A DNA stretch of 25,919 bases, taken from the UHGV virus genome UHGV-0239440, one strand, 5' to 3'. This document shows, one piece after another, positions 10,359-10,913 of the stretch. This stretch comes from a virus. The notes beneath the pieces are model-generated. The model saw only the letters and a program-made list of their open reading frames with translations. It was not told the origin of the DNA and made no database searches. The first letter of the stretch is position 1. Every line of letters begins with the position of its first letter. Both the position numbers and the translations under genes were made by a program.

Positions 10359-10844
10359 ATGTTTTGTGCTAATAAAGATTGTGGCAACAAAGCCGTTAAA
10401 GGTGGGAAATATTGCTCACGCTCTTGCGCTGCAAAGGTAAACAACAAGAGTCATCCAAAAAGAAGACAAGAAGGTTCTTGTCATTCATGTGGAAAGCAAA
10501 CACCAAAATCAAGAAAGTATTGTGATGAATGTATTTCAAATGGTATTCTGAAACAATACAAAAACCCTGATGAAGAAAAGAAAGCGAAGTCACAACACGT
10601 TAAAAAGTCTCGTGACAAACTTAAGAGGGTTTTAGTTGATTACAAAGGTGGTTGTTGCTCAATTTGTGGATACAATAAGTGCATAAAGGCTTTAGAGTTT
10701 CACCACTTAGACCCCAATACAAAGGACTTCACAGTAGGACAAAAACACTTCTCTATAGAGGTAATGAAGTCTGAAGTTGATAAGTGTGTATTACTGTGTG
10801 CAAATTGCCACAGAGAGGTACACGAAGGGGTAACAATGCTGTGA
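10359..10844 (+). CDS. HNH endonuclease with N-terminal Cys-rich zinc-binding region (161 aa)
   Basis: C-terminal CSICGYNKCIKALEFHHLDPNTKDF...CVLLCANCHREVHEG is a classic HNH motif; N-terminal CxxxC/CxxC pairs; ORF track start at 10200 rejected because it runs through two tRNA genes; ATG at 10359 has a GGTGA RBS. Confidence 0.8.
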   Translation: MFCANKDCGNKAVKGGKYCSRSCAAKVNNKSHPKRRQEGSCHSCGKQTPKSRKYCDECISNGILKQYKNPDEEKKAKSQHVKKSRDKLKRVLVDYKGGCCSICGYNKCIKALEFHHLDPNTKDFTVGQKHFSIEVMKSEVDKCVLLCANCHREVHEGVTML

Positions 10845-10913
10845 AAGCACATATGGATGTGCATTCGGCTGATAACCGAAAGGCAGAAGGTTCGAATCCT
10901 TCTCACAGTACCA
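10838..10913 (+). tRNA. tRNA-Ile (anticodon GAT)
   Basis: Acceptor GCTGTGA/TCACAGT; D-stem GCAC/GTGC; anticodon stem TTCGG/CCGAA loop CTGATAA; 5-prime end overlaps last 7 nt of HNH ORF. Confidence 0.8.

Follow-up and report, generated by a model that had tools for sequence, protein, structure and literature searches.

A putative homing HNH endonuclease gene, inserted in the tRNA island of a Felix O1-like phage, ends inside tRNA-Ile

The stretch of DNA analysed here, hereafter the window, is the 25,919 nt of the virus genome UHGV-0239440. It is matched by 279 records of Ounavirinae phages, most of them Felixounavirus, and judged by these matches it is the tRNA island of a Felixounavirus, a Felix O1-like phage. 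ARAGORN finds 26 tRNA genes in the window, spanning positions 9003-14731. The gene which concerns us lies between two of them: tRNA-Met(CAT) on the left (10266-10342, plus strand; 54.2 bits with the Rfam tRNA model), itself preceded by tRNA-Lys(TTT) (10186-10261, ARAGORN), and tRNA-Ile(GAT) on the right (10838-10913, plus strand; 60 bits with Rfam over 10838-10910). The tRNA-Met gene has its CCA end at 10340-10342 and is 95-100% identical across relatives. It is followed by the two bases AT (10343-10344, plus strand), which are the full separation between tRNA-Met and tRNA-Ile in the relatives devoid of the HNH gene, and then by an inserted cassette of 493 bp (10345-10837, plus strand), which the alignment of the window, FelixO1 and Henu11 with HK3 shows to be absent from such HNH-less relatives. 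Near the start of the cassette, a Shine-Dalgarno-like GGTGAT (10350-10355, plus strand) stands about 7 nt, counted from its GG core, before the ATG of a coding sequence for an HNH endonuclease of 161 aa (10359-10844, plus strand, with its TGA at 10842-10844), orthologous to Felix01p085 / ORF44.

A consensus scan predicts a sigma-70-like promoter, TTGACA-17-TATAGT (10929-10957, plus strand, 11/12 matches), just downstream of tRNA-Ile; the region of its TTGACA hexamer is kept in all relatives compared, the compared stretch ending before the second hexamer. Two other sigma-70-like promoters are predicted upstream of the island, at 8856-8884 and 8947-8976. The promoter and terminator scan found no terminator-like site on the plus strand between 8880 and 11300, and the same type of scan found neither promoter-like nor terminator-like sites within the 493-bp cassette. 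Since the promoter-like site at 10929-10957 would open the next transcription unit, the HNH gene and tRNA-Ile would close a unit driven from about 8856-8976.

The longest ORF which can be called mechanically at this locus runs from 10200 to 10844 and encodes 214 aa, compared with 161 aa from the ATG at 10359. The 159 nt between the two starts correspond to 53 codons, which cross tRNA-Lys and tRNA-Met. An earlier reading of the sequence (the first-pass annotation) had held that the ORF track was over-extended by these 53 codons across two tRNA genes, and the comparison with relatives bears this out, as the long frame is closed or shifted in the other HNH-plus genomes: in nine of these the frame above the conserved ATG is open over 3-8 codons, except in KEP3, where it is open over 35; the farthest start in KEP3 lies 24 codons upstream of the conserved ATG and would give a protein of 185 aa. 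The spacer between tRNA-Lys and tRNA-Met, which is 4 nt long in the window, measures about 80 nt in Henu11 and MET-P1-301. Of ten further HNH-plus genomes, eight have the counterpart of the ATG at 10359 in the reading frame of the stop, the other two being frameshifted, and the sequence GGTGATA(C)TT just upstream of it is kept in all ten. Hence the idea that the true product is the 214-aa protein has next to nothing in its favour beyond the length of the ORF and its recurrence, as a 212-aa version, among public automated gene calls (P0001). The added codons are two tRNA genes translated as protein, stops or frame changes block them in the other HNH-plus genomes, a weak Pfam match of the protein vanishes once they are added, and a conserved ribosome-binding site and ATG lie at 10350-10361. 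By this comparison the 214-aa form is an accident specific to the window, the long form having no conservation. For annotation, the correct gene is 10359-10844 and the long ORF is an error, one which recurs in public gene calls.

At its other end the coding sequence reads GTA ACA ATG CTG TGA. The 5' acceptor arm of tRNA-Ile, GCTGTGA (10838-10844), pairs with TCACAGT at 10901-10907, so that the ORF and the tRNA share the entire 7-nt arm, from the last base of the Met codon through the Leu codon to the TGA; the stop codon of the HNH gene is made of bases 5-7 of tRNA-Ile(GAT). ARAGORN, Rfam and the sequence itself agree that an ORF ending at 10844 overlaps a tRNA starting at 10838, as had been proposed. 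The accompanying statement that the last two codons and the TGA belong to the acceptor stem was right for the TGA and loose for the codons, one full sense codon plus one base being involved. An identical 7-nt overlap is annotated in the RefSeq genome of Felix O1 (NC_005282), with the coding sequence at 25030-25515 and tRNA-Ile at 25509-25584. The overlap is genuine, and annotators should not "fix" it.

The identification of the product as an HNH-fold protein, made already from the sequence alone, holds by profile, motif and fold, nuclease activity being predicted. The protein matches PHROG 2255 'HNH endonuclease' with E=2.8e-34, as well as seven further HNH PHROGs, and has about 2,500 homologues, many of them with PF01844. 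On the window protein alone this Pfam profile scores 14.1 bits, below its cut-off of 21.4 bits (E of about 0.05); searches of the NCBIfam profiles gave no match, and a sequence search of the PDB found no relative. The nuclease core, zinc-stabilised and of the beta-beta-alpha-metal type, occupies aa 97-155 (10647-10823, plus strand), with the motif C100-x2-C103, H115-H116, C147-x2-C150-H151 and H155. Upstream of it, two Cys4 clusters (C3, C8, C19, C23 and C41, C44, C55, C58; 10365-10532, plus strand) are presumed to be zinc ribbons and to form a DNA-recognition module; a long connecting helix separates the zinc ribbons from the nuclease domain. In 35 full-length homologues, the three Cys4 sets (C3/8/19/23, C41/44/55/58 and C100/103/147/150), H115-H116 and H151 are invariant, and N149 and H155 are conserved at 90% or more; the roles of these residues as catalytic His or metal ligands were assigned by eye. 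The AlphaFold (AF2) model has a pLDDT of 92.6, with 85-94 over the N-terminal Cys4 part, and shows the beta-beta-alpha-metal fold. The small size of the domain keeps its structural match scores modest. All these features place the protein in the HNH / His-Me finger superfamily, where it has the CxxC...CxxC zinc site of the McrA-like branch together with the conserved His. No GIY-YIG catalytic domain was found in it, the profile and fold matches being all to HNH proteins.

The state of the site before insertion can be read from HK3, in which it is ...CTGAGCCTCCA-AT-GCTGTGAAAGCAC..., with two bases between tRNA-Met and tRNA-Ile and a junction reading CCTCCA-AT-GCTGTGA. In the window, the 493 extra bases (10345-10837) stand exactly at this 2-nt spacer. 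The bases CAAT are present at both junctions, which makes the limits of the insert ambiguous by as much. The cassette thus brings a ribosome-binding site and an ATG without a stop codon. Our comparison of the site covered 11 genomes with the HNH gene and 8 without it: the junctions are identical, and the TGA of the tRNA is used, in 11/11 filled sites examined. When the insert alone was searched with blastn, it was found in 12 felixounavirus-like records, compared with the 279 which match the region (about 4%). In the carriers the HNH gene is always at the Met/Ile site, and both tRNAs are intact at the empty sites of the HNH-less relatives. These presence and absence counts were drawn from the GenBank phage collection; scans of IMG/VR for exact junctions gave one filled and one empty site, too few to count. 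The presence of a free-standing HNH gene inside the tRNA island, and its presence in some related phages and absence from others, which the first-pass annotation had proposed to look for by alignment, are thus both established, at one precise site (12/279). Presence or absence at one locus with intact flanks is what is found for free-standing homing endonuclease genes. We rejected the context of an intron or an intein, since the genes on both sides are intact tRNAs, and we also rejected an HNH protein of the packaging type, as the gene is far from a terminase and missing in most relatives.

The HNH genes of these phages fall into two allele types, that of the window (Henu11, Henu12 and KEP3, 97-98% identical) and that of Felix O1 (83-85%). 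The two types are separated by a dS of about 0.6, with a dN/dS of 0.14-0.18 (about 0.15), which means that the HNH protein is maintained by purifying selection. The window and Shigella phage Henu11 encode the same protein (100% identity), although their genes differ by 12 synonymous changes. In two relatives, OPT-SAL01 and MET-P1-301, the same deletion of 1 nt in a run of six A shifts the frame in the N-terminal half. This shared frameshift is a sign of the gain, decay and loss of the gene; as it lies in a homopolymer, it may also be a sequencing error. Homing endonuclease genes commonly decay once fixed, and one might thus ask whether the window copy is itself an inactive relic, as the two frameshifted copies could suggest. 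Its ORF is intact, however, it retains all 24 family-invariant residues (the window protein being itself part of the alignment from which the invariant columns were drawn), and its identity with the Henu11 protein has outlasted those synonymous changes, so that we hold a relic to be quite improbable.

The left flank of the window is 98-99% identical to those of the HNH-less phages DE7, pSJ21 and HK3, and 92-95% identical to those of Henu11 and KEP3, which carry the same HNH allele; on these comparisons the similarity of the flanks tracks neither the presence of the HNH gene nor its allele type. The slot occupied by tRNA-Ile is hypervariable, with at least four alleles of 64-83% identity, compared with 90-100% for tRNA-Lys, Met, Arg and Ser, and in the records examined the HNH gene occurs only with allele 1. 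Among the phages with an empty site, HK3 and pSJ21 have allele 1 (in its A and C forms respectively), while PC79-13, ULIM3 and CL1 represent alleles 2-4. The only flank marker associated with the HNH gene is a C instead of an A in the variable loop of tRNA-Ile: it is found in all HNH-plus genomes and is not exclusive to them, as 13 HNH-less records have it too. We therefore set this SNP aside as a marker of co-conversion or immunity; its association with the HNH gene could be explained by shared ancestry. The hypervariability of tRNA-Ile and the restriction of the gene to allele 1 fit a turnover of target sites or co-conversion, and prove neither. More generally, the shared tRNA-Ile allele, the discordant flanks and the hypervariable slot appear compatible with homing, of which they are not a proof.

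The same observations can be read in another way, namely that the gene is no longer mobile and has become a domesticated or resident nuclease (serving for instance in the exclusion of competitors or in DNA processing), inherited vertically and occasionally lost. The strong purifying selection, the existence of two old allele types with a dS of about 0.6, the occurrence of the gene at one site only and the presence of the same tRNA-Ile allele in every HNH-plus genome would all agree with this. We nevertheless consider it unlikely, as the gene is present in only about 4% of the related records, frameshifted copies exist, the phylogeny of the flanks is discordant with the presence and the allele type of the HNH gene, and its clade turns up here and there in phages that are not related to one another, each time as a single insert within a tRNA array.

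We favour, with a probability of about three in four, the reading in which 10359-10844 is a free-standing HNH endonuclease gene of the homing type, brought by a 493-bp cassette to the Met/Ile spacer and receiving its stop codon from tRNA-Ile, with homing and a limitation by RNase P as the two processes that we infer. The HNH gene would be transcribed as part of a tRNA precursor from the upstream sigma-70-like promoters. During mixed infection, the enzyme would nick or cut genomes devoid of the HNH gene, at the Met/Ile junction or close to it, and recombinational repair would then copy the cassette together with the adjacent tRNA-Ile allele. A cut by RNase P at 10837/10838, the 5' end of tRNA-Ile, would sever the message inside its penultimate codon and remove the stop. 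Full-length enzyme would then come only from the unprocessed precursor, and a potentially toxic nuclease would be kept scarce. The loss of a stop codon by tRNA processing is a proposal only, even for segB of phage T4 (PMC2330249).

We compared the ends of homologous HNH ORFs with the downstream tRNA of the same strand in six other phages, and they overlap in all of them: by 15 nt with tRNA-Gly in Pseudomonas phage M5.1 (YP_010766605), by 11 nt with tRNA-Asn in Synechococcus phage S-WAM2 (AOV61720), by 10 nt with tRNA-Ala in the T5-like Klebsiella phage AmPh_EK80, by 10 nt with tRNA-Tyr in Vibrio phage VCPH, by 1 nt with tRNA-Asn in Hafnia phage Zyzzx and, according to the annotation of the record, by 39 nt with tRNA-Lys in Pseudomonas phage PAK_P4 (AGR89469). 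The proteins of M5.1, S-WAM2 and PAK_P4 resemble that of the window in their HNH domain (48-50% identity), in their location in tRNA arrays and in having their stop in the next tRNA. They differ from it in their size (85-136 aa) and in lacking one or both of the N-terminal zinc ribbons, and their genes adjoin other tRNAs than those of the window, in unrelated phages.

In IMG/VR, we considered the 79 best scoreable loci among at least 573, loci which are not phylogenetically independent. A tRNA lies within 1.5 kb of the HNH homologue in 75/79 of them; the stop codon is inside a tRNA of the same strand in 35/79 and inside a tRNA of the opposite strand in 3/79, while in a further 24/79 a tRNA starts at most 100 nt downstream of the HNH ORF. 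As a control, we took from the same loci the other ORFs of at least 80 aa, called mechanically. Among the ORFs beside a tRNA of the same strand, 38/72 HNH ORFs end inside the tRNA versus 9/65 others (odds ratio of about 7, p of about 2e-6, to be read with the non-independence of the loci and the mechanical nature of the control ORFs in mind). The tRNAs concerned are of many kinds, and the phages belong to several families. It is thus a habit of this HNH clade to reside in tRNA arrays (75/79) and to place its stop in the downstream tRNA (35/79). This is new: in the literature searched we found no description of such a family-wide tRNA-ending pattern for HNH enzymes.

Positions U8-A9-G10 of tRNAs often read TAG, so that an ORF entering in the corresponding frame stops after 10 nt, a simple origin for the recurrent overlaps of 10 nt. 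The island of the window is also tightly packed elsewhere: an ORF ends at 14557, 1 nt before tRNA-Ser (14559), and another at 13371, 8 nt before tRNA-Gln (13380). The genes T5.057 and T5.069 of phage T5, which are not annotated as HNH, overlap tRNAs too. As packing is generally tight in the island, the overlap of the stop codon with tRNA-Ile could be compaction without a regulatory role. According to this explanation, the gene would be that of a homing endonuclease unregulated by tRNA processing, and the functionless overlap a by-product of the landing site and of the compaction of the island. We give it somewhat less than an even chance. What speaks against it is that HNH ORFs stop in a tRNA far more often than the other ORFs of the same loci (38/72 versus 9/65), that they do so with many tRNAs and in several phage families, and that the arrangement exists also in the unrelated GIY-YIG enzyme SegB (PMC2330249).

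One can go further and suppose that the zinc-ribbon HNH clade as a whole is a homing family dedicated to tRNA arrays: its members would insert 5' of tRNAs, the tRNA would supply the end of the ORF, and RNase P, by producing a non-stop mRNA, would couple tRNA processing to the dosage of the enzyme; the activity of the enzymes would also drive the replacement of alleles at the adjacent tRNA, of which the four very different tRNA-Ile alleles would be the trace. We put this forward tentatively, as a generalisation which is more probably wrong than right.

About 350 bp upstream of the HNH gene lies a permuted tRNA-like element (about 9905-10036), and the first-pass annotation had regarded local rearrangement driven by the endonuclease as relevant to it. 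The analysis does not support this link. The stretch 9730-10185 is conserved alike in HNH-plus and HNH-less phages. The predicted fold of the element has a closing stem (GACCGU/ACGGUC), a small hairpin, a T arm and a capped 7-bp acceptor-like hairpin, followed by a D-arm-like sequence which is not formed as an arm in the minimum-energy fold; Henu11 and PC79-13 have a compensatory change from U-A to A-U in the acceptor-like hairpin. The YrlA Y RNAs of bacteria and phages have the order T, acceptor-like, D, with a variable stem upstream (PMC4201824), and the element shares this order of stem-loops. A search with Rfam did not call it YrlA, its sole match being a sub-threshold one to tRNA at 24.7 bits. 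About 1.1 kb upstream of the element is a Ro60-like gene (7422-8837), with the Pfam domains DUF2828 and DUF7788 and the PHROG annotation "RNA-binding protein". A model of its product, built with database homologues, has a pLDDT of 88 and a pTM of 0.88, and its ten best matches in the PDB are all Ro60/TROVE proteins, including the Ro60 of a Thermus phage. The conservation of the element with and without the HNH gene, its YrlA order and its Ro60-like neighbour make it look like a dedicated non-coding RNA and not a product of the endonuclease; a YrlA-type Y RNA serving as partner to a Ro60 of the phage is more likely than a tRNA which the endonuclease has rearranged.

The main points of interest of the locus are the clade-wide ending inside the next tRNA and the hypervariable tRNA-Ile slot. 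Phage tRNA arrays are now viewed as loci of anti-defence, and their spread and amplification by SegB, a GIY-YIG enzyme, have been demonstrated (PMC2330249, PMC13096335). If the HNH clade acts likewise, a second and unrelated family of nucleases would be shaping the tRNA repertoires of phages. Felix O1-like phages, which are used in Salmonella typing and biocontrol, would be a convenient system in which to test this, and the tRNA-Ile slot is the obvious place.

We finally compare the gene of the window with those already known. That homing endonucleases are found in phage tRNA clusters, which had been stated at the outset, is documented by two papers (PMC2330249, PMC13096335) and by the annotation of T5. 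The annotation of the type phage already contains the feature itself, and T4 and T5 offer known examples of its kind. In the RefSeq genome of Felix O1, Felix01p085 / ORF44 (NP_944863.2) bears the annotation "HNH endonuclease", and the paper describing that genome counts six HNH homing-endonuclease-like genes (PMC3185647). ORF44 resembles the gene of the window in its protein (83% identity, 161 aa), its tRNA-Met/tRNA-Ile site and its 7-nt overlap, and differs from it in being of the other allele type, with 85% nucleotide identity and a dS of about 0.6.

SegB of T4, a GIY-YIG enzyme, is the proven homing endonuclease of the T4 tRNA cluster (PMC2330249). It cuts the tRNA genes of relatives by way of a T-arm motif, within a site of 27 bp, and its inheritance is nearly 100% (PMC2330249). 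In its mRNA, the maturation of tRNA-Arg would cut between the last codon and the stop, which has been proposed to lower expression (PMC2330249). A significant co-location with tRNAs is reported for the homologues of SegB, an enzyme which amplifies tRNA anti-defence loci (PMC13096335). Like segB, the gene of the window is free-standing, lies in a phage tRNA array on the strand of the tRNAs and is absent from close relatives; the ORF of SegB ends where the downstream tRNA begins and that of the window a few bases into tRNA-Ile, both thus having their stop at the start of a tRNA of the same strand or just inside it, and the relatives of SegB are, like the HNH clade of the window, statistically associated with tRNA genes. 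The two proteins, one GIY-YIG and the other HNH, have no homology, and the activity, site and inheritance of SegB are demonstrated, whereas we infer those of the window gene.

In T5, according to RefSeq, hegC overlaps tRNA-Ser2 by 14 nt and hegD overlaps tRNA-Gln2 by 23 nt, and a proposal equal to that made for segB exists for the T5 tRNA-cluster enzymes F-TflI and F-TflII, in work of 2004 as reported by the paper which cites it (PMC2330249). The T5 heg genes are like that of the window in belonging to the HNH superfamily, in being embedded in a tRNA cluster and in having a regulation based on tRNA processing proposed for them, and their proteins differ from it in domain make-up: BLASTP found no significant similarity with hegC and hegD (E above 0.5) and a marginal one with hegA, limited to 55 aa of the HNH core (E=0.007). 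In T5-like phages, such as AmPh_EK80, it is ORFs lacking an annotation and lying upstream of tRNA-Ala that are truly related to the window protein. As far as its sequence and its setting can tell, the gene of the window appears to be arranged, and would work, like segB and the systems of T5, while belonging to the family of neither.

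The slot of tRNA-Ile(GAT) (10838-10913), into which the HNH gene (10359-10844, + strand) ends, is occupied among the relatives by at least four very different alleles, with 64-83% identity (same slot in the loci L017, L018, L020 and L021), whereas the adjacent tRNA-Lys, tRNA-Met, tRNA-Arg and tRNA-Ser genes are 90-100% identical. This variable slot is flanked by the nearly invariant tRNA-Met and by a conserved promoter downstream, and in the records which we examined the HNH gene is accompanied only by the tRNA-Ile allele of the window. In phage pSJ21 (L015, 1-295), another gene, annotated as an "HNH homing endonuclease", has its 3' end 4 nt upstream of tRNA-Asp, and the tRNA-Asp which follows it is the most divergent from that of the window (68% identity). 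The pSJ21 locus thus gives a second example of an endonuclease gene with a variable tRNA immediately 3' of it. In some metagenomic relatives (L024, 1514-2076; L035, L059 and L086), the 3' end of the HNH ORF falls within a tRNA gene of the opposite strand. This shows that the association of the clade with tRNA genes is not confined to co-oriented genes.

In phages OPT-SAL01 and MET-P1-301, which are independent deposits, the HNH gene is frameshifted by a common deletion of 1 nt in a run of six A in the region of codon 72. This frameshift reflects either a real decay of the HNH element or a sequencing error in the homopolymer.

The promoter which follows the variable slot is a predicted near-consensus sigma-70 promoter (TTGACA-17-TATAGT, 10929-10957, + strand), located 16 nt 3' of tRNA-Ile, and all the relatives examined retain the TTGACA region. 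The tRNA island, inside which this promoter lies, thus seems to comprise several separate transcription units. The island also contains two conserved ORFs of the + strand without assigned function, neither of which encodes an HNH protein: one (12814-13371, PHROG 2143) ends 8 nt before tRNA-Gln and the other (13760-14557, PHROG 2114) ends 1 nt before tRNA-Ser. The spacer between tRNA-Lys and tRNA-Met is only 4 nt long in the window, while Henu11 (L003, 2000-2079) and MET-P1-301 (L009, 802-879) carry about 76 bp of inserted sequence between these two genes.

Directly upstream of the island, an ORF of 471 aa (7422-8837, + strand; Pfam DUF2828 and DUF7788) models as a Ro60/TROVE and vWA protein, the ten best PDB matches of its model all being Ro60. 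About 1.1 kb downstream of this ORF lies a conserved YrlA-like RNA (about 9905-10036, + strand), in which a closing stem, a V hairpin, a T arm, a capped acceptor-like hairpin and a D-arm-like sequence succeed one another as in YrlA, and whose acceptor-like hairpin shows one compensatory change; Rfam made no Y RNA call for this element. The ORF and the RNA are probably a phage Ro60/Y RNA pair. Directly upstream of the YrlA-like element, a module without tRNA-like domain (9820-9887, + strand) has the closing-stem sequences CAGAAGACC...GGTCTGG in common with it, and could represent a second element of the Y RNA-like type; short versions of this module are found in other felixounaviruses (L034, L114, L117 and L130-L135).

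Finally, several tRNA-free stretches of 240-260 bp in the island (10914-11160, 11238-11475 and 11566-11819) are conserved among relatives, and we found no convincing ORF in them. The sequence GCAGTAGCTT is present in two of the tRNA-free stretches of the island (10046-10055 and 11028-11037, + strand). The conserved stretches may encode further stable RNAs, and these candidates can be likened to the stable RNAs annotated in the tRNA region of phage T5.
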